A stretch of DNA of 12,539 nucleotides from a virus (IMGVR_UViG_2529293139_000012); one strand, 5' to 3'; shown: positions 1,598 through 12,539, counted from the stretch's first letter. Numbers and translations are program-made. Notes: a model not told the origin generated them from the letters alone.

Positions 1598-1673
1598 GGC
1601 CCTTTAGCTCAGTGGTTAGAGCAGGCGACTCATAATCGCTTGGTCGTTGGTTCAAACCCAACAGGGGCCACCA
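1598..1673 (+). tRNA. tRNA with CAU anticodon, most similar to enterobacterial tRNA-Ile2 (lysidine-CAU, ileX/ileY-like); elongator tRNA-Met not excluded
   Basis: 76 nt, GGCCCTTTAGCTCAGTGGTTAGAGCAGGCGACTCATAATCGCTTGGTCGTTGGTTCAAACCCAACAGGGGCCACCA. Acceptor stem GGCCCTT/AGGGGCC pairs, anticodon loop CT-CAT-AA, T-loop TTCAAAC, encoded CCA. D-arm and anticodon arm match E. coli tRNA-Ile2 as I recall it; T-arm differs. Confidence 0.9.
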
Positions 1674-1681
1674 TATCTATC

Positions 1682-1719
1682 AAGGGGTTACGTTAACAGC
1701 GTGACCCCTTCGTTTTTTC
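1682..1719 (+). terminator. Rho-independent terminator after the tRNA
   Basis: Imperfect hairpin AAGGGGTTACG / CGTGACCCCTT followed by a T6 run (cgttttttc). Confidence 0.6.
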
Positions 1720-2056
1720 TAGGATACCTATAGGATACCGTGACAGAGTATAAGCAGGTATAAAAACAACAAGTTACGCAACATCATACCTGTCATGAAA
1801 CTTTAACTATCCGACATGATAGCTGGTCGATGATCACGGATAATCCGTTATGTGGATCCCCATATCGGCATCAGGCCCACCAGCGTGAAGCGTTTTTCAT
1901 TTTTCGCGGGTATAAAAAATCGATGGGGCTGGCAGTCCGGAAGACGTCAGGGTACAGAGATTTGCCCCGCCCCTCCCTGTGCATGGGCACAATAAGTAAC
2001 CGAAGGCGGAATTCCTCCCTCGGTACTCACATATGAGAAACGATATTTCTTCCTCT

Positions 2057-2131
2057 GATACCCAAAATATGGGTATCACAAGTAACCCCCAAAATCTGGG
2101 TGTTGCTCTTACTACCCAAACTACGGGTAGT
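2057..2131. repeat. Array of three dyad-symmetric ~21 bp sites spaced 27 bp centre to centre (candidate cosB-like or integrase/regulator binding sites)
   Basis: Site 1 GATACCCA-AAATA-TGGGTATC (perfect 8 bp arms, 2057-2077); site 2 AACCCCCA-AAATC-TGGGTGTT (2084-2104); site 3 ACTACCCA-AACTA-CGGGTAGT (2111-2131). Related GGATACC half-sites also occur in tandem at 1721-1739. Confidence 0.6.
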
Positions 2132-2150
2132 TTCCGTAATTTCATGGTCG

Positions 2151-2168
2151 AGTTGCAGATCTGCAACT
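2151..2168. repeat. 18 bp perfect palindrome AGTTGCAGATCTGCAACT
   Basis: Exact inverted repeat read directly from the sequence, in non-coding DNA about 20 bp from the three-site array. Confidence 0.7.
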
Positions 2169-2214
2169 CACCCACCAGCCAACGCAATTTTGCGTTATCG
2201 GGAATATCAGCAAG

Positions 2215-2502
2215 TTACCGCCGCAGCCGTTCCGGCTTCTTCCACTGGTAAGTATTTTTCGCGCTCTCCCTCCGTTGTTGAGAACGGCGACGGTATGCCA
2301 GCAACTCAAGGACTCTTGTTCGTATGTTGCGCATATCCACGCCGTTAAGCTCAATACCGTCACGGAGCATCACCTCAGCCACCACACGCGCGTAATTTTC
2401 AGCGGTGACTGTATCCGGCTGCGCGGCCTGTTCGTCAGCCAACTGGCTGATTCCACCAGCACAGCGGATTAATCGCAGTATTTCAGATTCGGTCATTATC
2501 AT
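2215..2502 (-). CDS. Hypothetical protein (95 aa), translationally coupled to the small terminase gene
   Basis: Its ATG overlaps the TGA stop of the upstream gene in an ATGA arrangement at 2499-2502. No recognisable motif. Confidence 0.5.
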   Translation of the reverse strand: MIMTESEILRLIRCAGGISQLADEQAAQPDTVTAENYARVVAEVMLRDGIELNGVDMRNIRTRVLELLAYRRRSQQRRESAKNTYQWKKPERLRR

Positions 2503-2984
2503 GCCTGTTTTGCGACCTCATTCACTACGTCATTTTTTACCATCCGGCTGATAATCTGATTACGCAAATCGTCAATAATTGACTGCACTCTGTTTACTGC
2601 CATCGGTTTAAGCCCGGCATCACGTGCCAGAATATTGGGGAGTTTTGCCAGTTCCTCGCTTACGATTTCCCCCCATATAGCCATCTCTTTTCGCACATCA
2701 TCGGCGGGTATGAGTTGCGCCGTTTCCTGTTCGAACCTGAGGCGCTCACGTTCGGACTGATACCAGGCCTTACGGTCATGTGGCTCCATTTCTTCCAGTG
2801 ATGCCGGAACGGGAAGATCAAGAAAACAGGTCAGAATGTCAGTCACCCGATAGAGTTTTAGCTTGTCATGCCCTCCGGCTGGCTGGATGTTTTTCAGCCT
2901 TGCCGCCGCAGTCTGACGACATATTCCCGCTATCGCCGCCAGTTGATTAATGTTCAGCATCAGATTTTTCAGTTCTCGATCCAT
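2499..2984 (-). CDS. Nu1-like terminase small subunit (possible Rpp-type packaging-redirection protein)
   Basis: Start taken at ATG 2982-2984 (MDRELKNL) with GGAG Shine-Dalgarno 7 nt upstream; the longer ORF-track form from 3071 lacks a ribosome binding site. N-terminal HTH 'LNINQLAAIAGICRQTAAARL' followed by a GG..K..LY motif parallels lambda Nu1 (VNKKQLADIFGASIRTIQNW...GGGKG..LY) as recalled. Confidence 0.7.
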   Translation of the reverse strand: MDRELKNLMLNINQLAAIAGICRQTAAARLKNIQPAGGHDKLKLYRVTDILTCFLDLPVPASLEEMEPHDRKAWYQSERERLRFEQETAQLIPADDVRKEMAIWGEIVSEELAKLPNILARDAGLKPMAVNRVQSIIDDLRNQIISRMVKNDVVNEVAKQA

Positions 2985-3137
2985 ACCCGCTCCAGAATGT
3001 TTTAAACATGCATCTTGCGAACAACTTTCAGAAGAGGTCAAAAAATGCGCTATATGTTGAGCATAAAACAAGCAAAATTAACATGCCAAAAATAAAAATA
3101 CTTAAAATTCAATACAATAGAAAGATGATGATGACGA

Positions 3138-3220
3138 ATGAAAATGCAAAAACTAGCTTTTTCCGCGCCGTTCCCGCCCCGTGGCAGGCCACCTCACCGG
3201 GAGGACCCACCCAAAAAAGG
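3138..3220. repeat. Copy 1 of a GC-rich ~75-80 bp conserved non-coding element, upstream of the small terminase operon
   Basis: Near-identical to 6487-6560 (ATGAAAATGCAAAAAC.AGC.TTTTTCCGCGCCGTTCCCGCCCCGTGGCAGG.CAC..CACCGGGAGGACCCA). The plus-strand ORFs over the two copies share nucleotides but diverge in frame after about 5 codons, so the conservation is not protein-coding. Confidence 0.75.
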
Positions 3221-3254
3221 CGACTGTCACTATTGTTTATGCTCCATGAGCGAC

Positions 3255-3276
3255 AAAACCGCCCGCAGGCGGTTTT
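3255..3276. terminator. Bidirectional rho-independent terminator downstream of the gpI-like gene
   Basis: AAAA-CCGCC-cgca-GGCGG-TTTT: perfect 5 bp GC stem flanked by A4 and T4. Confidence 0.6.
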
Positions 3277-3293
3277 ACATAAAACGTTTTGTA

Positions 3294-3965
3294 TCAGCGA
3301 CCAATCACCACAATCTGGCCGCCATCCCCTTCATCTGCCGTGCTGATCTCTTGCGAAATCACCCGCGACCCGACGCGCATTTCACCGTACAGAACAGGCA
3401 GAACATTGCCCTGGGCAACCATGTTATCCAGTGAGGAGAAATAGGTGTTCTGCTTACCGTTATCCGTTGTCTGTGTACGGGGAGTTCTGGCTTTCGGTGC
3501 CAGCATCTGCGCCACACCACCGAGCACCATACTGGCACCGAGAGAAAACAGGATGCCGGTCATACCACCGGCCCCAATGGCTGCCCCCCATGCTGCAAGG
3601 GTGGCTCCGGCGGTAAAGAATGATCCGGCAATGGCGGCAGCCCCCAGGACAATCTGGAATACGCCACCTAACTTGGCCCCGGCGACTCTGGGAACAATAT
3701 GAATCACAGCGCCATCAGGCAGAGTCTCATGTAACTGCGCCGTTAACCCGGACGTGCTGACGTCCCGCCCGGCAATCCGTACCTGATACCAGCCGTCGCT
3801 CAGTTTCTGACGAAACGCCGGGAGCTGTGTGGCCAGTGCCCGGATGGCTTCAGCCCCCGTTTTCACACGAAGGTCGATGCGGCGACCAAATCGTTGTAAA
3901 TCCCCGTAAAGGCAGATGCGTGCCATGCCCGGTGACGCCAGAGGGAGTGTGTGCGTCGCTGCCAT
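3294..3965 (-). CDS. Lambda gpI-like tail assembly protein (223 aa)
   Basis: Intact ORF with purine-rich stretch upstream of the ATG. N-terminal 'MAATHTLPLASPGMARICLYGDLQRFGRRIDLRVKTGAEAIRALA', a Gly/Ala-rich hydrophobic middle and C-terminal '...VVIGR' match my recollection of lambda tail assembly protein I. It is flanked by a capsid gene and a terminator rather than K and J homologs. Confidence 0.65.
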   Translation of the reverse strand: MAATHTLPLASPGMARICLYGDLQRFGRRIDLRVKTGAEAIRALATQLPAFRQKLSDGWYQVRIAGRDVSTSGLTAQLHETLPDGAVIHIVPRVAGAKLGGVFQIVLGAAAIAGSFFTAGATLAAWGAAIGAGGMTGILFSLGASMVLGGVAQMLAPKARTPRTQTTDNGKQNTYFSSLDNMVAQGNVLPVLYGEMRVGSRVISQEISTADEGDGGQIVVIGR

Positions 3966-4054
3966 TTGTCGGTATACCTCTCTCGTTTGCTCAGTTGTTC
4001 AGGAATATGGTGCGGCAGCTCGCCGCCCCACGTGTTCAAAGTACCGCCTTGTTG

Positions 4055-5968
4055 TCATGCTCCATTCGATTTCAGCAATCCACGATAATCGAGGGCCGCG
4101 ACACCTGCATCTATGCGCACCTTCCAGGCGACACCATCAACAGTAAAGCCCACCTGCTCCTCAAGATATGGCGTATCCATACCATCAAGATAAGCGACTT
4201 CTATTGTGTCCATCCCCTTAGCTGCGGCTACATACCATTCCTTGCTATTGGCCTTATCAAGACGTGGCTCAACAATTACTTCTGCCATATCTTTCACAAC
4301 GTTAATGATGCCGGGGTTCTGATTGATAGTGCCCTCATCACCAACCGGAAAGACTGATGACGATGACAGAATGGCGCGACGCGCGGCAGATTCCAGCGCG
4401 GCAGGGACCAGAACAAAAGCAGGGGTAATATTCAGTGAGTCGCCGTTAGCATCCTCCTGGAGGCGCATCAGCTTACGGGCTTCATCAAGCCCCACCATGT
4501 CCATATCCTTCGCAATAAGATTTTTATGATCGGCATGGAATAACGCTTTACCATCCGTAAACTTGCCGTTGCTGGTTAACAGGAGATAAACCAGATTGCC
4601 AACTGTTCTGGCGGCTGCGCGTCCCATCGCCATGGGGATTGTAGTTAACTGGGTCAGGTCATCGTTGATAATGGCCTGACGGGTAACGGAGAAAATATTC
4701 CCGTACGTGGCCAGCGCAATAGGTACACCTTTATCGCTGGTGGTGATGTATTTATATTCCGCACCTTCCGGTACTTTATCCAGCTTTGAAAAACCATTCA
4801 GACCAACGCGCTTTGCTTCATGAAAGTTTGAAAGCGAACCGGTACGCGTCCATTTCTGGAACGTTTCGCCGCTGTCCTGCCAGCCTTTCAGTACAGATTT
4901 TTCAGCCCCACCAGCCAGAATATGAGAAAAATCACTGCTGCTGTGTGTAAAAGCCGCATTAACAACCTGCGAGCGATTAATAAAACCACTCACAGTGATA
5001 CCACGATCAACCAGTGATGCCTGGGCCATTTCAAAAAGGCTCATCATCGCGTAAGGGTTGCCTCGTTCAGGGCGTTCATACCCAAGACGGGAATAAAGCC
5101 CCTGACGAATTGCATCACCTGTTATGTTTCCGTTTCCGGCATAGATATGAGCCGGGGTATTTTTATTGGATGGCGTGGACTCGCGCCCCAGCTCGTTCAA
5201 CAGCTTTTCACGGGCCATTTCCGGTGTACATGATGCATCTTCCAGACACGCCATTTTGATCCCGTCGTAACGACTGCCGAACAGGCTAAACACTTCACTT
5301 ATTCCATTGATGCGTTTCTGTTCATTACCAGCAATATTTGCCGCTCCCTGTGGCGGTGTAATCATTCCTTTAATGGTTTCCGGCATATGTAAAAAATCTC
5401 CTGTGCGCTTCGATTCAATTCGCGCCATTGCTCTGACGGATGGCAACAATTCATCAGCAAAACCGTGCTTAAGGCATTCTTTCCCGTCCATCCAGGTTTC
5501 ATCTTCCAGCATGGCGGTAATTTCCTGTGCTGATTTGCCCGTTTTTCTGGCATAAGCAGGGACTAACACGGTTTCCACCTTATCCAGCAAATCAGCATAA
5601 TCACGCATATCACCAGCATTTCCGCCAGAGATACCCCACGGCTTATGTATCATCATCATGGCGTTTTCCGGCATCACAACACGATCGCCAGCCATTGCGA
5701 CCACCGAAGCCATTGAAGCCGCAACACCATCGATATAAACCGTAATGTCTGCCGGATGATTCCGTAGCAGGTTATAGATGGCGATGCCTTCAAACACATC
5801 ACCACCTGGTGAATGGATCCTCAGATTGATATGTGAAACATCGCCAAGGGCTTTCAGGTCTTCCGCGAACTGCTTTGCAGTAACACCGAAGCCGCCAATC
5901 TCCTCATAGATAGATATATCCGCCGCTCCGCGAACATCCGCCGCCTTAATGGTGTACCAGCGATTCAT
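4055..5968 (-). CDS. Fusion of ClpP-like (S14) prohead protease with a major-capsid-like domain (637 aa)
   Basis: N-terminal ~200 aa carry ClpP-type motifs (IYEEIGGFG, HSPGGDVFEGIAIYNLL, IDGVAASMASVVAMAGDRVVMPENAMMMIHKPW). The remaining ~430 aa look like a phage major capsid domain, possibly Mu gpT-like; the family cannot be fixed without a search. Confidence 0.75.
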   Translation of the reverse strand: MNRWYTIKAADVRGAADISIYEEIGGFGVTAKQFAEDLKALGDVSHINLRIHSPGGDVFEGIAIYNLLRNHPADITVYIDGVAASMASVVAMAGDRVVMPENAMMMIHKPWGISGGNAGDMRDYADLLDKVETVLVPAYARKTGKSAQEITAMLEDETWMDGKECLKHGFADELLPSVRAMARIESKRTGDFLHMPETIKGMITPPQGAANIAGNEQKRINGISEVFSLFGSRYDGIKMACLEDASCTPEMAREKLLNELGRESTPSNKNTPAHIYAGNGNITGDAIRQGLYSRLGYERPERGNPYAMMSLFEMAQASLVDRGITVSGFINRSQVVNAAFTHSSSDFSHILAGGAEKSVLKGWQDSGETFQKWTRTGSLSNFHEAKRVGLNGFSKLDKVPEGAEYKYITTSDKGVPIALATYGNIFSVTRQAIINDDLTQLTTIPMAMGRAAARTVGNLVYLLLTSNGKFTDGKALFHADHKNLIAKDMDMVGLDEARKLMRLQEDANGDSLNITPAFVLVPAALESAARRAILSSSSVFPVGDEGTINQNPGIINVVKDMAEVIVEPRLDKANSKEWYVAAAKGMDTIEVAYLDGMDTPYLEEQVGFTVDGVAWKVRIDAGVAALDYRGLLKSNGA

Positions 5969-6174
5969 TGTTCCCCCACCGATGCAAAACCATTCTGATT
6001 AAGCCAGGTGTTTACGGCATGTCTGACAATCTGCGCCACACCTGGTAATGGTTGGTCAGGATGATGATTTATATGGTCGATCCTGTACTGCTTAAGGCGC
6101 ATAACGGTCTGCGCATCCAGATGAACGGAACCACCTCTGGTATCACCTGTGTTCAGGTCATTAATACAACTCAC
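5965..6174 (-). CDS. Small hypothetical protein (69 aa), translationally coupled to the protease-capsid gene
   Basis: GTG start with GAGGAAG Shine-Dalgarno upstream; its stop overlaps the downstream start by 4 nt. Confidence 0.45.
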   Translation of the reverse strand: MSCINDLNTGDTRGGSVHLDAQTVMRLKQYRIDHINHHPDQPLPGVAQIVRHAVNTWLNQNGFASVGEQ

Positions 6175-6273
6175 AGCAACTTCCTCTGACTGACTAAACT
6201 ATGCACATTATTGATCGATAAAAGTGGTAAATAAACATATTTCTATCATAAAAACAGATTAATTAGATTCAGA

Positions 6274-6299
6274 CACAAAAAAGCCGGAGAAAATCCGGC
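6274..6299 (-). terminator. Rho-independent terminator on the minus strand, upstream of the capsid operon
   Basis: GCCGGA-gaaaa-TCCGGC hairpin followed on the minus strand by TTTTTTGTGT. Confidence 0.65.
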
Positions 6300-6486
6300 A
6301 TAAATATCCCGCCATCTGAACACGTTTTGACACAGGCAACTCCACCTGGCAGGTGAAAAACAGATTTATTTATATATTTCAATTAATTGCAAACTGGTCT
6401 AATGACAGGGAGAAAAAAATATTGTACAGGTGAAAACAGAAATAACTTTTAATTATCAATAAATTATCACACATGCTGCCGCCGCC

Positions 6487-6560
6487 ATGAAAATGCAAAA
6501 ACCAGCCTTTTTCCGCGCCGTTCCCGCCCCGTGGCAGGTCACTACACCGGGAGGACCCAT
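6487..6560. repeat. Copy 2 of the GC-rich conserved non-coding element, upstream of the capsid operon
   Basis: Aligns with 3138-3220 over about 75 nt with a handful of substitutions and a 1 nt indel. Confidence 0.75.
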
Positions 6561-6582
6561 AAAAAAGCCGGATTGCTCCGGC
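6561..6582 (-). terminator. Rho-independent terminator on the minus strand, between the putative ori and repeat copy 2
   Basis: GCCGGA-ttgc-TCCGGC hairpin followed on the minus strand by T6. Confidence 0.6.
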
Positions 6583-6713
6583 TTCTGTTACTCGTTGCTT
6601 AAAACGGTATGTTATCCCCGTACGGATCATCATTCCCCGCCTGTTGTTTTGGTGTGCTTCGCTGTCATAGGCTTTATCTCACAGCAGTAAATTAAAATTT
6701 TTGCGTTTTAACC

Positions 6714-6941
6714 CTTCACCTGTTCACCTTTTGATATTTTCTCTTTTAATTCATAATGTTAAGGGGTGAGCAGTTTCACAAAAACTATTCACCAACTGTT
6801 CACCACTGTTCACCCTTGAAGCTCAATAAACAATCAAAAAGGTGAACAGTGAATAGTTTGGTGAACAGTTCATAAATAACTGTTCACCCTATAATATACT
6901 GATATAAAAGATATTTATGACAGGGTGAACAGTGGTGAACA
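6714..6941. repeat. Iteron cluster, putative replication origin
   Basis: At least nine copies of the 8-mer GGTGAACA / TGTTCACC in both orientations (6721, 6797, 6807, 6841, 6860, 6881, 6924, 6934, plus degenerate copies) flanking an AT-rich core (ctgatataaaagatatttatga), directly 3' of the primase-helicase gene. Related CAGGTGAAAA(A)CAG motifs at 6350 and 6427. Confidence 0.65.
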
Positions 6942-6955
6942 GTTATTCCATAAGT

Positions 6956-8731
6956 TTAATTTTTGCTATCGTCATTAGTGACCGATACACATGATGGCAT
7001 CCAGTCTTCTGATTCCTCCGTCAGTGTCACGTTTGAACGCAAACCGTGCTTCGTTTTCCGTTTCATATACTCCCTGCCATATTCCGCCATTGCCCCCGGC
7101 ATATCTTTACCGAAGCGCGTCAGTGTTACAGGTTTACCAAACCCATGTGCCCTCATATAAGCCAGATAGGCATGATAGAGATACCTGCGTGGGCTGAATG
7201 GCACAATTTCAGCATTACCCACTAACAGGCCATCACACATTACCGACGCCATGAGATAGCCGCAGAAGTCCACCAGCGAATCCCCCTCTCGCTTTATCGC
7301 CAGTGCTTCTTCAGATTTCTGCTGCTCATATAACAGGCGTCTGGCTTCGTCCTGGTCAGCAAACCGTGTAAGCAGATGGCGAATCACTACCGCCAGCTCA
7401 CCTTCTATTTTTTCCGCCAGCATTGGATCGCGTTCGTTCTCCGGTACAACTTCCGAAAAATTGAATATCACCCGACGACGTGAGATCCCCCCGCTGCGGT
7501 CACTGAATGACATGGCGTTATTGTTAACCGCCAGCACTACTGCCGGAATACGCGTTGAGTAGGGGGCTTTGTGTTTCGGATCAATTGCCACCTTGTCACC
7601 GCCTGTAATGGCCTTAATTCCTGCCCCATCACCAGCGTAGCGGGTCATATCCGGCATGATAATCAGCGAAAAGCCAACCACTAACGCGCGTTCCCTTGCA
7701 TCTTCCAGCGCCTTCATGCTTGCCGATACTGTGTTGGCCTTACCCGCCAGCATGGTGCAAATCTCCGCCATCACGCTTTTACCACTTCCCCCTGGACCTG
7801 TTACCTCAATGAATAACTGCCAGTCGTACCGGTTCGCCAGCACCATGAATAATGCAGCCAGTACGCGATCCGCCTTGCGGTCATTCTCAGCCACCGAACG
7901 GCGTAACCACTTCCAGAAATTCGGCGCATGTGTTGCCAGCGTTTCCCCCTCTGCTGGTGGGCTGAAAGGTAATTCACTGGCAATTAACAACCAGTCGTTT
8001 TTGTTATGCTCCCGAAAATTACCTGTTCTGGTATCAAATACCCCGTTACTGAATCCAATCAGGTTACGGGCTGTATTCCCCATAACAGGCAAACTTAACT
8101 TCATGGTATCGACCGCCGATTTAATGGCGTTCTGCGAATAGCTGATCTCCGCATCAATGAAAATCTGTGCCATAGCTCGCTGTAATTCTTTATCCTGTAC
8201 TGGCTCCCATACAACGCCGTTGTAATGGTGAACAGTGTCAGAGTCAGCATGAATCGCCAGTTCACCGCCATAATGTGCCAGGAGAACTTCGCCGCGTTGA
8301 CTTGCTCCCATCTGGTTAAGCGCCAGTGATGAAGCGTTATCGTCTTTTACCCGCTCTTTTTTCTTTACAGGCAGTTCAACTACCTTTTTCTTTTCCGCCA
8401 GCTCTGCCCGTTCACGTTCCAGATATTCGCGCCAGTTCTCCCGTTTCTGGCTGTGCATTCCTTCAGGGTAATAATCAGCATCCCTGACACCTGCCTCTGC
8501 CAGTTTCTGCCCGATGGTATTAACAAGCCCCGGACGCAATAACCCCGCCTGATAGAGACGCACGCGATAGCGTCCGTCCGGTACGATTTGCAGGTTGTCC
8601 AGTTCGGCAAGTTGTTGCTCTCCAAGCCAGACAGGTGGCACGTTATCGCCAGCCAGTCGCCCGTCCTGTTCCTGCCACTGATTCGCATGTGCCCACGCAT
8701 CACTACCCGCAAAAATGATGACTTCCGTCAT
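6956..8731 (-). CDS. Phage/plasmid primase P4-family C-terminal domain helicase (D5-like NTPase), putative replication initiator Pri-Rep (591 aa)
   Basis: Walker A 'VTGPGGSGKS' with the surrounding D5_N-like region (NFWKWLRR...YDWQLFIEVTGPGGSGKSV...VIFNF); the gene is followed immediately by the iteron cluster. Confidence 0.8.
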   Translation of the reverse strand: MTEVIIFAGSDAWAHANQWQEQDGRLAGDNVPPVWLGEQQLAELDNLQIVPDGRYRVRLYQAGLLRPGLVNTIGQKLAEAGVRDADYYPEGMHSQKRENWREYLERERAELAEKKKVVELPVKKKERVKDDNASSLALNQMGASQRGEVLLAHYGGELAIHADSDTVHHYNGVVWEPVQDKELQRAMAQIFIDAEISYSQNAIKSAVDTMKLSLPVMGNTARNLIGFSNGVFDTRTGNFREHNKNDWLLIASELPFSPPAEGETLATHAPNFWKWLRRSVAENDRKADRVLAALFMVLANRYDWQLFIEVTGPGGSGKSVMAEICTMLAGKANTVSASMKALEDARERALVVGFSLIIMPDMTRYAGDGAGIKAITGGDKVAIDPKHKAPYSTRIPAVVLAVNNNAMSFSDRSGGISRRRVIFNFSEVVPENERDPMLAEKIEGELAVVIRHLLTRFADQDEARRLLYEQQKSEEALAIKREGDSLVDFCGYLMASVMCDGLLVGNAEIVPFSPRRYLYHAYLAYMRAHGFGKPVTLTRFGKDMPGAMAEYGREYMKRKTKHGLRSNVTLTEESEDWMPSCVSVTNDDSKN

Positions 8732-8770
8732 TTTGTCACGCGGCTGGTGTTTTAAATTTGGCGCTTTTTT

Positions 8771-9064
8771 TCATTTCTGCTCTCTCCACGCGGCAATCAT
8801 GTTTTTCAGTTCCTGTAGTTTTTTATCCACACGTGACACATGGTTATTTCTGGAAGTCGGGATTTCCCGCCGGAATCTGCAAATAAAGATCTCCACGTTC
8901 AGCGAACTAAGAAATGAATATCCATCACGGATAAAATAAACACGGTCAAACATCAGTTCTTTTACCGTTACTCTGTTACCGTTCTTATCCAGATAAATAG
9001 CGCCGGGGATAATTTTGGGGTGTGCATAACCGCTGGCAGTCAAGCCAGATAAATATGTTCTCAT
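8771..9064 (-). CDS. Hypothetical protein (97 aa)
   Basis: ORF in the co-oriented gene string upstream of the primase-helicase gene; no recognisable motif. Confidence 0.4.
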   Translation of the reverse strand: MRTYLSGLTASGYAHPKIIPGAIYLDKNGNRVTVKELMFDRVYFIRDGYSFLSSLNVEIFICRFRREIPTSRNNHVSRVDKKLQELKNMIAAWREQK

Positions 9065-9070
9065 GATTAT

Positions 9071-9391
9071 TTATCCCCGATTTGAATCAGTATTCGCTTT
9101 CTTTATGGCATTTAATGCATCTGTGGCATTTTCAATGGTGCACCGTAACGAAATATCAAACTGCCCAAGCATTGCCAGTAACAAACCGATATTACCCATA
9201 TCAATGCGCATGGCCTTTTCGTCATAGTCCTCATTTTCTGACGCATGCCACATCAGGCTACCAATTGACGCAACAGCCATTGATATATTGTCAGTAGCCC
9301 CATCAGCAGCGGAATAAACCTTTTTAGCAATATCATGCTCACAGTTAAAATGCGGATTAATCAGGTACTGGTAATTTGACATATCAGGCAT
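9071..9391 (-). CDS. Hypothetical protein (106 aa)
   Basis: ORF with AGGGGG Shine-Dalgarno about 8 nt upstream of the ATG; its start overlaps the stop of the preceding ORF by 8 nt. Confidence 0.45.
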   Translation of the reverse strand: MPDMSNYQYLINPHFNCEHDIAKKVYSAADGATDNISMAVASIGSLMWHASENEDYDEKAMRIDMGNIGLLLAMLGQFDISLRCTIENATDALNAIKKANTDSNRG

Positions 9392-9587
9392 GGCACACCC
9401 CCTGACGAATACGGGCGGCGAATACCATCACGTAGCCAGCCGGGGATTGCTGGCGTGCTTCCTGTTCGCTGGTGGCCTCAATGGTAATCACGCGCGGTTG
9501 TGCCGTGCTCAGGGCGATAAAACGCCAGATGTATTTATTCAGGTCGTGCGAGTACCGCCCTTGCGGGTGTGTGGTATGATTTAACAT
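9384..9587 (-). CDS. Hypothetical protein (67 aa), first gene of the leftward small-ORF and primase string
   Basis: Start taken at ATG 9585-9587 with GAGGT Shine-Dalgarno 5 nt upstream. The longer 221-aa ORF-track form would run antisense through the divergent gene and operators. Confidence 0.45.
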   Translation of the reverse strand: MLNHTTHPQGRYSHDLNKYIWRFIALSTAQPRVITIEATSEQEARQQSPAGYVMVFAARIRQGVCHA

Positions 9588-9688
9588 AGCTACCTCGATA
9601 CTATCGTTATCGTTGGTGGTTAGAAGCCCGGTTAGTGTTCCCGCACTACCGGGCTTCGCTGTATTTAATGGTTGCGTATTTTTAATGC

Positions 9689-9731
9689 GGTACGTACCAT
9701 TTAATTTCAGTTTATAACGATGGTACGTACC
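9689..9731. promoter_or_regulatory. Pair of 10 bp perfect palindromes GGTACGTACC (putative operators) in a divergent promoter region
   Basis: Exact copies at 9689-9698 and 9722-9731, 33 bp centre to centre, between the start of the 67-aa minus-strand ORF and the plus-strand small ORF. Confidence 0.55.
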
Positions 9732-9732
9732 A

Positions 9733-9915
9733 ATGCAAGAAGAAAATGTGAAACCAAAATTTGATCGCTCCGGCAGCACAAAGAAAAACATCCGCTTCGA
9801 AGACACATTGTTGCAACAAATTAACGAAGTTGCTGGGCCTGGTAATTTCAGCTCATGGGTAAAAAATGCTTGTCGTGATAAGCTACGCAAAGAAGGCATA
9901 GAACCCAAAGGCTGA
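9733..9915 (+). CDS. Small putative regulatory/DNA-binding protein (60 aa), possibly YlcI/YnfO (DUF3950)-like
   Basis: The only plus-strand gene in the island; followed by a plus-strand terminator and preceded by the operator pair. 'NIRFEDTLLQQINEVAGPGNFSSWVKNACRDKL' resembles the DUF3950 pattern as recalled (low certainty). Weak ribosome binding site. Confidence 0.45.
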   Translation: MQEENVKPKFDRSGSTKKNIRFEDTLLQQINEVAGPGNFSSWVKNACRDKLRKEGIEPKG

Positions 9916-10009
9916 CAGCCAACCAGCAAGCCAGCACACTGATCACATTGCCCACCAGCCGCAAATGTGGCATTGTTGGTGATGCGTTCAAGTTTAGTGT
10001 GTATCCATT

Positions 10010-10038
10010 GGCGACCGCCCCCGGTCGCCTTTGTTTTA
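10010..10038 (+). terminator. Rho-independent terminator for the plus-strand small gene
   Basis: GGCGACCG-cccc-CGGTCGCC hairpin followed by TTTGTTTTA. Confidence 0.6.
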
Positions 10039-10055
10039 TGTGCCATCACTCCCCC

Positions 10056-10265
10056 TTACACCGTCTGCGTTCTGCGAGTGGATGCAAGATAAGCATCGAG
10101 ATCAGTGCGCATATACAGCACTTTGCGACCAAGCTTATGGAAAGGGATTTTTACCTTGCCAGTACACGCCCAGTTCGCCAGTGTTTGATTGTTAACGCCA
10201 AGGTAGGCAGCAGCTTCAGCACGTGTAAGGCGGTCAGTTGATAAATCAGATTTCTTTAAATTCAT
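10056..10265 (-). CDS. AlpA/excisionase-family HTH DNA-binding protein (about 69 aa)
   Basis: Start taken at ATG 10263-10265 (MNLKKSDL); the ORF-track form starts 3 codons earlier at a GTG. HTH 'LTRAEAAAYLGVNNQTLANWACTGKVKIPFHKLGRKVLYMRTDLDAYL' has the Xis/AlpA architecture. Confidence 0.6.
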   Translation of the reverse strand: MNLKKSDLSTDRLTRAEAAAYLGVNNQTLANWACTGKVKIPFHKLGRKVLYMRTDLDAYLASTRRTQTV

Positions 10266-10407
10266 ATCTATCACCGTGTACGTCTAAGTAACAACGGTGA
10301 TAAATATCAATCAATGAGTATTTTGTTTTTAGCCCAATAGCCAGTTGCTGTGGGGCTGTTACCAGTTATTTAGCCTCAATAGCCAGCTATTAAAATACCG
10401 TAGCCAG

Positions 10408-11133
10408 CTATTGGGGGTGAACAAGCTCAAACGAAGAGTATTTATCAGGCTTTGGTGGTTGTGCCCCTGATTCTTTAATCCATCTATCTAGCGTGTTTTT
10501 ACTTACTTTCCCATGGTAGTAAACAGAAAGCTCGTTCAATAAACCTGTTTTACTGGCTTTAGGGTACTTTTCCCATGTTAGTTTAATTACGTGCATAACT
10601 TCATTGTAATAATGATTTCTTGGTTTGCGCGCTTTTTCTTTCTGTGATAAGGATAAAGCATCCTTTATTTTTTTATCTTTTTCATGGTTCGATATAATTT
10701 CTTCAAAAAAATCATTAAGCAATAACTCAACACCAACTCTAGTAAGTTTGTCTGCGTGATTACGCATTCCGACATGGTACAATGCAACTGCTGAATTTAA
10801 AGTATCGACAACCTGACAAGATAGTTTACTATCAAATATTAAAAAACCACACGAATCAATTTTTGCAGCTAATTCAATAGGATATTGCTCGATTTCACTT
10901 GATTCTAAACCATAACACAAAAGAAATTCTCTTGTTGGATATTTTGATTTATAAAAATAATCTCTTATATCATCAATCAAGCGTTTTATAGCCTCTATGG
11001 TGGAGTTTCTCGGGGATAAAGATACAGGAACGTTTAAAACTGAAGATTCTCGCCCACCAGTAATTAAATCATTCATAACCGAATAAATAATATATTGTTT
11101 GACCGATATATTGTTATCATCCATATATGTCAT
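10408..11133 (-). CDS. AT-rich hypothetical protein (241 aa), candidate accessory/cargo gene
   Basis: ORF overlapping the integrase 3' end by 17 nt. Visibly much more AT-rich than the island genes on either side, with Lys/Asn/Ile/Tyr-rich codon usage. No recognisable catalytic motif; the C-terminus (KNTLDRWIKESG) may be HTH-like. Confidence 0.55.
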   Translation of the reverse strand: MTYMDDNNISVKQYIIYSVMNDLITGGRESSVLNVPVSLSPRNSTIEAIKRLIDDIRDYFYKSKYPTREFLLCYGLESSEIEQYPIELAAKIDSCGFLIFDSKLSCQVVDTLNSAVALYHVGMRNHADKLTRVGVELLLNDFFEEIISNHEKDKKIKDALSLSQKEKARKPRNHYYNEVMHVIKLTWEKYPKASKTGLLNELSVYYHGKVSKNTLDRWIKESGAQPPKPDKYSSFELVHPQ

Positions 11134-12539
11134 TCTTTTCTTGTACTATAGCAAATAGTAAACGACGTTTTTCATCATCACTCATGCCCTCCAGTGCGGA
11201 AAGCAATTGCGCATCGATAGATTTTTTACTCTCCACCAGCCCGGCATGTTCCTGAATTGCCCGTTCTATCCGTGACGCTGGCTCCAGCAATTCATCAGCA
11301 CCAAAATGTAAATACCCCTGCGTTACGTCAGCACTTCGCATAGTACGGTGATTCATCAGGCGCTTGAGGATGTAATTGCCCACGCCCACCAGTTCGGCAA
11401 CCGTTCCGAACGTCCGGCGCGCATCGTGCCATTTGAATGGTACAGGGGAGAGCATTTCATCGTTCGACTCTGAAACGGTAGCCGCGCTTATCCGGTCTAT
11501 GATGTGCCGTGTCTCCTGAATAACGCCCTTCACACCAGGAAACACCAGCACATCATCAGCAGCTTTGTTTTTTAGCCTGCGAAGAAACATTTTCCGCAAC
11601 GTATCAGTGATCGGCAGTTCAAGCGGATCCCCGTTTTTCGTGGTGTCTATCCAGAAAAAAACGACCGCCCATATTCACGCGATCCCACGTAAGGCCAAAA
11701 ATTTCTGATTTCCTCAGTCCGGTAAAAAGCGCCATTTCCACGGCATCGCATACCGTCACCGCTATATCATCCCTTTCCTGTTCGCCCTGGTCGCGCACAG
11801 CAGCTACAGCAGCAAACCAGCGGGGAAAATCATGCAGGCGGATACGTTCCGTTTTTCTTACCGTTCCGTGCCACTGGCGCTTGGTGCTCAGTACCAGAGT
11901 CGGCGGATCCGGTAAAAGAGTATTACCCGCATCATCACGGTAATGATCATGCGCAAACCGACACACAGCACGTAGCGCACGCGCCCATAAATCGGCCTGT
12001 GCCTTGCTTCCTGTACCAACCCCAGCCCGTAACGTGGTTTTATCAGCACCGAACCATACAGCCCCATCAGTGATGGCCTTATGCCGTTGTTCCACCCGTT
12101 CGCGGGAAATACTGGCGAGGGTATGGGCCATCCAGTCACCGGAATAATTCTGTAATATGCTGCGGTACTGTTTTTCTGTGGCGGGTTTCAGGCGGTGGCC
12201 ACGATTTTTTACGTAGGCGTCAATCGCCTCACTCAGCGTTATCATGGCCTTGTTGTTAGTGCGCTTTGCTATGTTCGGATTTATCCCCGTTGTGGCGACT
12301 TCGCCAAGGAGTTCCATAGCTTTAGCCCTGGCATTATCCACGCTCAGATCAGGAAAACGCCCCAGCGTTGCACGAATAAATTTTCCGTTACGCTTACGGG
12401 AAATGCAGAAACTTTTCACACCAGACGAACCTACACGGACACGCAGCCCGTTAACCTCCGTATCACCATATTCGACCTGTCCATGTTCCGGCGTTGGCAG
12501 TTCTGCAATTTTTACTTTAGAGAATCTGAATAATTTCAC
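11117..12539 (-). pseudogene. Tyrosine site-specific integrase (P4-like family), interrupted by a frameshift in an A7 run at 11655-11661; N-terminus runs off the window
   Basis: The 306-aa upstream frame carries the first Arg box (TGLRKSEIFGLTWDRV); the 160-aa downstream frame carries HDARRTF and the catalytic Tyr region (RSADVTQGY). Removing one base from the homopolymer joins them as ...GRFFWIDTTKNGDPLELPITDTLRKMFLRRLK.... Confidence 0.85.

Follow-up and report, generated by a model that had tools for sequence, protein, structure and literature searches.

The 12,539-nt window that we analysed (viral record IMGVR_UViG_2529293139_000012; all positions are counted from its first letter) covers all but the right-hand end of what is very probably, at a probability of roughly 85%, a classical Gram-negative PICI of E. 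coli, of the EcCI type, cos-packaged, 11.09 kb long and inserted in the 3' end of ileY (tRNA-Ile2). Its gene set, a capsid gene and a small terminase (TerS) without a portal or large terminase (TerL), is already the published norm for enterobacterial PICIs, and both its genotype and its late module are already catalogued. What is new here is the presence of two lambda-like cos sites, the match of TerS, capsid and cos to mEp460/cdtI-type phages, a captured lambda I cassette, and the selection acting on the capsid fusion. As a discovery the island carries little weight, and its remaining value is as a clue to the function of PICI capsid genes.

Boundaries and backbone of the island

The integration target is a tRNA-Ile2 gene (ileY, anticodon CAU; 1598..1673, plus strand), identified with ARAGORN, Rfam and RefSeq; the island provides the 3' half of this gene. 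ARAGORN calls this tRNA Met(CAT), and the RefSeq annotation is tRNA-Ile, i.e. ileY. A repeat search placed the attL core at 1628..1677 (plus strand), 50 nt from the tRNA 3' half that recur as a direct repeat. Its right-hand partner, which a previous reading of this DNA from sequence only had suggested looking for in the full contig, falls beyond the end of the window: in the near-identical strain L73 as well as in the source contig (GCA_000190815.1, GL871773.1), it is found 181-226 bp past the integrase start. The repeat is 46-50 nt long with 88% identity between attL and attR, and the spacing in L73 is 11,090 bp. Beyond attR in L73 begin the core genes ypjC, ypjA and ssrA, and because attR follows the integrase and core genes follow attR, the island is complete at 11.09 kb. 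No portal or TerL gene lies just past the integrase, a location that had been named as decisive. Probable integrase arm-type sites, recognized as a repeat family (GGATACCTATAGGATACC), are found at 1718..1762 (plus strand), with a second copy between the integrase start and attR. The direct att repeats, the specific site and the length are those of PICIs, which measure about 8-15 kb.

Every component that the sequence-only reading had listed, namely the integrase, HTH protein, primase-helicase, iteron origin, protease-capsid fusion, lambda gpI-like gene and small terminase, is present on ORF, Pfam and PHROG evidence. That reading was also right that portal and large terminase are missing: no ORF between attL and attR matches either, and no unassigned gap there is big enough for one. 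Lysis genes and complete head or tail modules are likewise absent, the late captures being confined to the capsid fusion, TerS and I, and no C4 or isrK immunity RNAs, which have been reported in some Gram-negative PICIs, were detected in the island at Rfam gathering thresholds.

The backbone is of PICI type, with Pri-Rep, DUF4222 and Icd-like genes. The tyrosine integrase (11117..12539, minus strand; Arm-DNA-bind_3 by Pfam and the RefSeq annotation of L73) is only 24% identical to that of EcCICFT073. Its ORF is broken in this assembly by an additional A in a homopolymer at 11661; since the gene is intact at 473 aa in L73, the frameshift is probably a sequencing error rather than decay. Next to it is a 241-aa accessory gene (10408..11133, minus strand; ORF call) of low GC content (0.32), with no Pfam, PHROG or PADLOC (defense-system) match and only 14 homologues in a homology search, all uncharacterised. 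An excisionase/activator-type regulator (10056..10274, minus strand; Pfam HTH_17, E=1.4e-11) occupies the position of AlpA. It has no sequence similarity to EcCICFT073 AlpA and matches HTH_17 rather than Phage_AlpA; published tRNA-Ile2 PICIs are likewise reported to have no alpA of the Pfam Phage_AlpA family (PMC10111431). A YlcI/YnfO (DUF3950) gene (9733..9915, plus strand), recognized by RefSeq annotation and gene order, is encoded on the other strand, an arrangement shared with EcCICFT073 and EcCIIHE3034. It is followed on the minus strand by an Icd-like gene (9384-9587), a 106-aa gene (9071-9391) and a DUF4222 gene (8771-9064), recognized by Pfam and by the RefSeq annotation of L73; the order of these three (8771..9587) is shared with EcCICFT073.

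The Pri-Rep primase-helicase (6956..8731, minus strand; Pfam D5_N/DUF5906/Pox_D5) is 48% identical over its full length to the EcCICFT073 Pri-Rep. It is 605 aa long in L73, and in this assembly an additional T at 8771 strips the first 14 codons. A repeat search predicted a replication origin directly downstream (6719..6948), with at least nine copies of the iterons GGTGAACAGT / ACTGTTCACC in both orientations. A Pri-Rep gene with the origin immediately downstream is characteristic of PICIs.

Relation to known satellites

The closest published layouts are those of EcCICFT073 and EcCIIHE3034 (Fillol-Salom et al. 2018, PMC6092414; 2019, PMC6739421), which share with the island a size of about 11 kb, two cos sites, the absence of portal, TerL and tail module, and a common order: int, regulator, YlcI (opposite strand), Icd-like, DUF4222, Pri-Rep, ori, cos, a small ORF, a capsid gene, cos, TerS or Rpp, and a gene of ~95 aa. 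The sequence-only reading had taken classical PICIs to be devoid of capsid genes. This premise is not supported: in EcCICFT073, c1499 codes for a capsid protein and c1500 for a decoration protein (PMC6092414), EcCIIHE3034 is annotated with capsid, decoration and small terminase genes and without portal or TerL, and Mageeney et al. (2023, PMC10111431) report a capsid gene for 21 of the 29 reference Gram-negative PICIs. The late modules differ: the island has a ClpP-capsid fusion and a DUF1441 TerS of the mEp460/cdtI head type, where the two published islands combine Rpp or a Nu1-like TerS with lambda E/D-like capsid and decoration genes. Further differences are the tRNA-Ile2 target, the lack of SSB and PerC genes, and the extra lambda I cassette.

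Both the genotype and the late module have been described before. Mageeney et al. (2023, PMC10111431) reported PICIs in tRNA-Ile2 genes whose late genes include a CLP_protease and whose integrase is distinctive, and the island shares their target, their integrase and their lack of a Phage_AlpA-family gene. EcCI224 (CP018948.1 1961620-1972242), a published PICI with the att gene frmR-thiM (Table S1 of PMC6092414), contains the same module of ClpP-capsid fusion, DUF1441 gene and terminal gene at 97.4% nucleotide identity; it differs in its att site and in having no K'-I cassette. Because capsid-bearing PICIs, the tRNA-Ile2 genotype and the EcCI224 module are already in the literature, the element fits the classical Gram-negative type, and the earlier suggestion that it belongs to no described type and represents a distinct hijacking strategy does not stand. 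Capsid-forming PICIs (cf-PICIs) such as EcCIEDL933 have in common with it a PICI-type backbone, a capsid protein, a head protease and TerS; cf-PICIs add portal, head-tail connectors, HNH and TerL, tails being all that they steal (bioRxiv 10.1101/2022.09.08.507074). We rejected a cf-PICI identity because these defining genes are absent between attL and attR.

Packaging genes and cos sites

Two copies of cosQ-cosN were found by alignment on the minus strand, and both align with the cos of lambda, of mEp460 and of EcCICFT073 upstream of rppA. The first, cos1 (3148..3216; checked against the lambda ends), is nearly identical to mEp460 cos and is followed by a diverged cosB-like stretch that runs down to the TerS start. 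The second, cos2 (6498..6566), is 86% identical to cos1, and its downstream sequence differs. TerS (2499..2984, minus strand; 161 aa) lies directly downstream of cos1, in the position of rppA in EcCICFT073, and matches Pfam DUF1441 and phrog_141 'terminase small subunit' (E=1e-56). It is 65% identical to mEp460 TerS and 53-71% identical to TerS proteins of lambdoid phages. By gene content, the island has the packaging determinants of PICIs, cos sites with a TerS or Rpp gene, which would rely on the TerL of a helper.

We considered whether the DUF1441 protein might be an Rpp and ruled this out, as it is instead a full-length TerS homologue. It has no PDB match at E<=1, crystal structures of RppA/B/C being published, and no BLASTP match to RppA. 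As the protein is not an Rpp homologue, the details of how packaging is hijacked may not be those of the Rpp mechanism. The last gene of the island (2215..2502, minus strand; 95 aa) is a conserved terminal PICI gene that matches phrog_1561 and is 73% identical to its counterpart at the end of EcCICFT073.

The protease-capsid fusion

The capsid gene (4055..5968, minus strand) encodes a 637-aa fusion of ClpP-like prohead protease, scaffold and major capsid protein. Its identification as a capsid protein, on which the sequence-only reading depended, is upheld by the Pfam profiles Phage_capsid_4 (E=2.6e-54) and CLP_protease (E=2e-35). The protein is 58% identical over its full length to the mEp460 head protein and 56-57% identical to those of Stx and mEp phages. 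The AASMAS (Ser) and IHKP (His) motifs, presumably the ClpP active-site motifs, are conserved between the fusion and the mEp460 protein. A 69-aa gene overlaps the capsid start (5965..6174, minus strand; phrog_4934 match), in the same position as a 68-aa gene of EcCICFT073 and EcCIIHE3034.

The fusion is clearly maintained by selection: its dN/dS is 0.04-0.08, indicating strong purifying selection. This selection contrasts with the result in EcCICFT073, where deletion of the capsid gene, the only knockout of a PICI capsid gene, gave no phenotype (PMC6092414, PMC6739421). The fusion could act by co-assembly, change capsid size, interfere with the helper, or serve as a back-up copy. It is doubtful, though conceivable, that it assembles, alone or with helper capsid protein, on the helper portal into the shell of the transducing particle, possibly altering capsid size. 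If so, this PICI lineage would be a functional intermediate between classical and capsid-forming PICIs.

Somewhat less probable still is the wider proposal that the island represents a distinct satellite class between those two types, in which the ClpP-capsid fusion would form the island's own shell on a portal stolen from the helper and the island TerS would work with stolen TerL. The selection on the fusion is in keeping with such a class, as are the retention of the protease, linker and capsid parts and the divergence from the helper-type protein, with only 58% identity and a 29-aa linker deletion relative to mEp460. There is also a precedent in SaPIbov5, a cos-type SaPI that carries Ccm, a diverged homologue of its helper's major capsid protein, without portal or TerL; Ccm redirects capsid size (cited in PMC6092414). 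SaPIbov5 belongs, however, to another lineage with a Gram-positive host, and size redirection is not known for E. coli PICIs. Against a distinct class, moreover, the gene set is not distinct and the genotype and module are already catalogued as PICIs, as described above; the EcCICFT073 capsid and decoration genes are dispensable for transfer and interference (PMC6092414, PMC6739421), and its packaged DNA is phage-sized (PMC6092414). Island length also argues for full-size heads: four copies amount to 44.4 kb, compared with 44.5 kb for the mEp460 genome, which fits the packaging of multimers.

The captured lambda I cassette

Between the capsid stop codon and cosQ, a terminator hairpin is interrupted by a 0.8-kb lambdoid cassette (3229..4046, minus strand), delimited by DNA alignment to lambda and consisting of the K 3' end, the whole of I and the I-J spacer; its junctions were mapped against the related locus L006, which has no cassette. 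The I tail-assembly gene (3294-3965, minus strand) encodes a protein 98% identical to lambda gpI. The cassette is present in 23 of 144 related islands, and I was captured recently, as a single gene, from a lambdoid prophage; it stands outside the basic plan of the family. This is a clean, datable case of a satellite taking up a late gene, and the captured gene might tune the assembly of helper tails.

Distribution and mobility

Among 5426 complete E. coli genomes, 144 carry the late module (ClpP-capsid fusion and DUF1441 gene). Islands that hold it were mapped to ileY, ileX and cspD-clpS, and it is also present within the published bounds of EcCI224. In addition, a 10,790-bp circular record corresponds exactly to such an island, a sister of ours with the K'-I cassette included. 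It is very unlikely that the element is a decaying, immobile remnant, a cf-PICI or lambdoid prophage from which the genes for portal, TerL and tail have been deleted. The integrase frameshift and disturbed primase start in this assembly, a stop codon at W74 of TerS in L73, and the fragment of K would all suit a remnant. Yet the same compact architecture recurs across the 144 genomes, a free circular copy of 10.79 kb exists, neither the att ends nor the arm sites are damaged, purifying selection on the capsid gene is strong, and the backbone is of PICI rather than prophage type. L73, moreover, has neither frameshift, and both fall in homopolymers of what is an older draft assembly. Individual copies may nonetheless be defective, given the frameshifted integrase of this assembly and the TerS stop in L73.

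A P4-like satellite of P2-type helpers, which would share the Arm-DNA-bind_3 tyrosine integrase, D5-type primase-helicase and Icd-like gene, can be dismissed as highly improbable, as no Psu, Sid, Delta or Epsilon homologues were found among the island ORFs (Pfam, PHROG), the cos sites are of lambda/mEp460 rather than P2 type, TerS and the capsid fusion match lambdoid and not P2-type phages, and the primase is akin to EcCICFT073 Pri-Rep.

Helper phages and a proposed life cycle

Judged by sequence, the cos, TerS and capsid fusion of this PICI are homologous to, though diverged from, the head and packaging module of lambdoid phages of the mEp460/cdtI type (proteins 58-65% identical), in which the mEp460 order is cos-terS-terL-W-portal-ClpP/MCP. 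Phages of this type are thus likely to be the helpers, and the view that a lambdoid phage must supply the island with portal, large terminase and tail is supported. We found no literature on experiments with EcCI224 or with PICIs carrying ClpP-capsid genes.

By analogy with EcCICFT073, an mEp460/cdtI-type helper prophage would induce the island through the HTH regulator, upon which Int would excise it and Pri-Rep would replicate its DNA into concatemers. Island TerS together with helper TerL would then recognise the island cosB and cut at cosN, and the DNA would be packaged, plausibly as multimers in full-size heads; the capsids would be assembled on the helper portal and then joined to helper tails. 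The match of the late module to a single head type gives a clear prediction of the helper, and such helpers would be widely available: of the 5426 complete E. coli genomes, 1819, or about one third, contain the mEp460-type terL-W-portal segment.

Relationship to published PICIs

The island is a known kind of element, its genotype and late module having already been catalogued among tRNA-Ile2-integrated PICIs and in EcCI224. The sequence-only reading had proposed a new satellite type on the premise that classical PICIs carry no capsid gene. That premise is wrong, as Mageeney et al. 2023 (PMC10111431) count 21 PICIs with a major capsid gene among 29 Gram-negative reference elements, and the proposal of a new type is not supported. 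The paper describes PICIs integrated at tRNA-Ile2 with a CLP_protease gene and a distinctive integrase but no alpA, and reports this CLP_protease gene as a target for helper-embedded PICIs, with insertion at site C:CLP_protease:110 giving rise to 20.6-kb satellite-in-satellite composites. In the window, the corresponding fusion gene (4055-5968, minus strand) is uninterrupted. EcCI224, a reference PICI (Fillol-Salom et al. 2018, PMC6092414; Table S1), shares the ClpP-capsid, DUF1441 and terminal-gene module with the window at 97.4% nucleotide identity (match H160).

All of the genes originally named from the sequence were confirmed by profile searches. These are the integrase (Arm-DNA-bind_3), the regulator (HTH_17), the primase-helicase (D5_N/DUF5906/Pox_D5), whose gene has an origin downstream of it containing nine or more GGTGAACAGT iterons, the 637-aa fusion (CLP_protease and Phage_capsid_4), the tail protein (Lambda_tail_I) and the small terminase, TerS (DUF1441; PHROG 'terminase small subunit' family, E=1e-56). 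Their order is that of published E. coli PICIs. EcCICFT073 is arranged as int, HTH, YlcI (on the opposite strand), an Icd-like gene, small ORFs, DUF4222, primase, (SSB, PerC), a 68-aa ORF, major capsid, decoration, an ORF, rppA and a 93-aa ORF, and EcCIIHE3034 has the same order but with a 'terminase small subunit' in place of rppA. The window primase is 48% identical to EcCICFT073 Pri-Rep over its full length, and the terminal genes are 73% identical. The integrase (24% identity) and the HTH regulator (no similarity) belong to types different from those of EcCICFT073. In its relation to a helper head module, the island closely parallels EcCICFT073, whose capsid gene has 45% identity to that of its helper and whose RppA is similar to the N-terminal part of the helper TerS. 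The terminal gene of about 95 aa (2215-2502, minus strand; phrog_1561) and an ORF of about 69 aa that overlaps the capsid start (5965-6174, minus strand; phrog_4934) are conserved in position in EcCICFT073, EcCIIHE3034 and the window island, and are core to the late zone.

The slot between the integrase and the regulator in PICIs can hold variable or defense cargo. Here, it holds an accessory gene for a 241-aa protein (10408-11133, minus strand; GC 0.32) that overlaps the integrase 3' end. This protein has no match in Pfam, PHROG or PADLOC and only 14 homologues in a large protein database. A HEPN-domain protein is annotated somewhere within the matching region of one relative, H7.

Integration site and element ends

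The window is 99.98% identical to E. coli L73 (NZ_CP033378.1). The tRNA gene at 1598-1673, called Met(CAT) by ARAGORN and tRNA-Ile by RefSeq, is ileY, with a ygaQ-type amylase pseudogene on one side and ypjC/ypjA/ssrA on the other. The 3'-terminal 46-50 nt of this tRNA (1628-1677) are directly repeated 181-226 bp past the start codon of the integrase, both in L73 and in the source scaffold GL871773.1 (GCA_000190815.1), and this copy is the right-hand att repeat; ARAGORN detected no complete tRNA gene in this repeat stretch of the source contig. A second repeat family (GGATACCTATAGGATACC...) lies just inside both island ends and looks like a set of putative integrase arm sites. With tRNA-end repeats and inner repeats at both ends, the element is therefore complete at 11.09 kb, with only core genes beyond, and the expectation that no portal or large terminase would lie past the integrase within it holds. 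The island-supplied tRNA 3' half (1628-1677) and the displaced attR copy (24718-24767 in locus L001) show paired differences in the T-stem (GTTGG...CCAAC versus GCTGG...CCAGC), which makes the functional ileY a hybrid gene carrying compensatory substitutions.

Three positions differ between the window and L73. At 8771 and 11661, the window has +1 homopolymer insertions, which break the integrase in two and take away the start of the primase; they probably arose as errors in the sequencing of the draft GCA_000190815.1. At the third position, 2764, a C/T difference gives L73 TerS a stop at W74, and the window TerS is intact.

Packaging and the likely helper

Positions 3148-3216 and 6498-6566 are the two copies of a 69-nt direct repeat that is nearly identical to the cos of the lambdoid phage mEp460. 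The repeat can also be aligned to cosQ-cosN of lambda and to the cos that lies immediately upstream of rppA in EcCICFT073. Two cos sites, 3,350 bp apart, are therefore present in the island, as in EcCICFT073, whose transfer increases when cos2 is deleted. The copy at 3148-3216 lies directly upstream of the TerS gene, and only downstream of this copy does mEp460 homology continue, through a diverged cosB-like stretch and into terS. TerS is 65% identical to that of mEp460. Across its whole length, the capsid fusion shares 58% identity with the protease/scaffold/capsid protein of mEp460, keeping the conserved Ser and His motifs, with a 29-aa deletion in the linker. The mEp460 order is cos-terS-terL-W-portal-ClpP/capsid, and a set of lambda-like tail genes, K, I and J among them, comes next. 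Head modules related to that of mEp460 are found in Stx and mEp phages, and 1819 of 5426 complete E. coli genomes carry them. The earlier view of the island as a satellite of a lambdoid helper is reasonable, and phages of the mEp460 type are its likely helpers.

By analogy with EcCICFT073, a helper would induce the island via the HTH regulator, Int would excise it at the att repeats, and Pri-Rep would replicate it from the iteron origin. Island TerS would then steer helper TerL to the island cos, with DNA entering heads on the helper portal that are joined with helper tails. Four island copies (44.4 kb) match the mEp460 genome (44.5 kb), which is consistent with phage-sized packaging as reported for EcCICFT073 (PMC6092414).

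Maintenance of the late module

It could be argued that the island is a decaying remnant, but three observations speak against this. The late module is paired with differing integrases, in islands at ileY, ileX and cspD-clpS and also in EcCI224, for which the att gene is listed as frmR-thiM (Table S1, PMC6092414). The capsid fusion has a dN/dS of 0.04-0.08 across four copies. Finally, a 10,790-bp circular 'plasmid' record, pZ1323HEC0475-3 (NZ_CP148328.1), is exactly such an island, complete and with the K'-I cassette included. The chromosome of that strain matches K-I only, so in that assembly the satellite is present solely as a free circle. As for the role of the capsid fusion, capsid-gene knockouts of EcCICFT073 had no phenotype, yet selection on the fusion here is strong. 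The fusion may build the shell of the particle, although we consider this unlikely.

The lambda I cassette

The I cassette is a recent single-gene capture in the late zone, outside the family's basic plan. Mapped against a sister island without it (L006), the insert spans 818 bp (3229-4046) and interrupts the terminator hairpin that separates the capsid stop codon from cosQ. It consists of ~65 nt from the end of K, ahead of the I start codon, then all of I and the spacer between I and J, with homology to lambda ending at about the J start codon. The island I protein shares 98% identity with lambda gpI, and many resident prophages match the cassette DNA at 96-97%. The K'-I cassette is found in 23 of 144 genomes with the late module, and among the cassette-bearing islands examined are some located at ileY and ileX and another whose integrase is of the cspD-clpS type.
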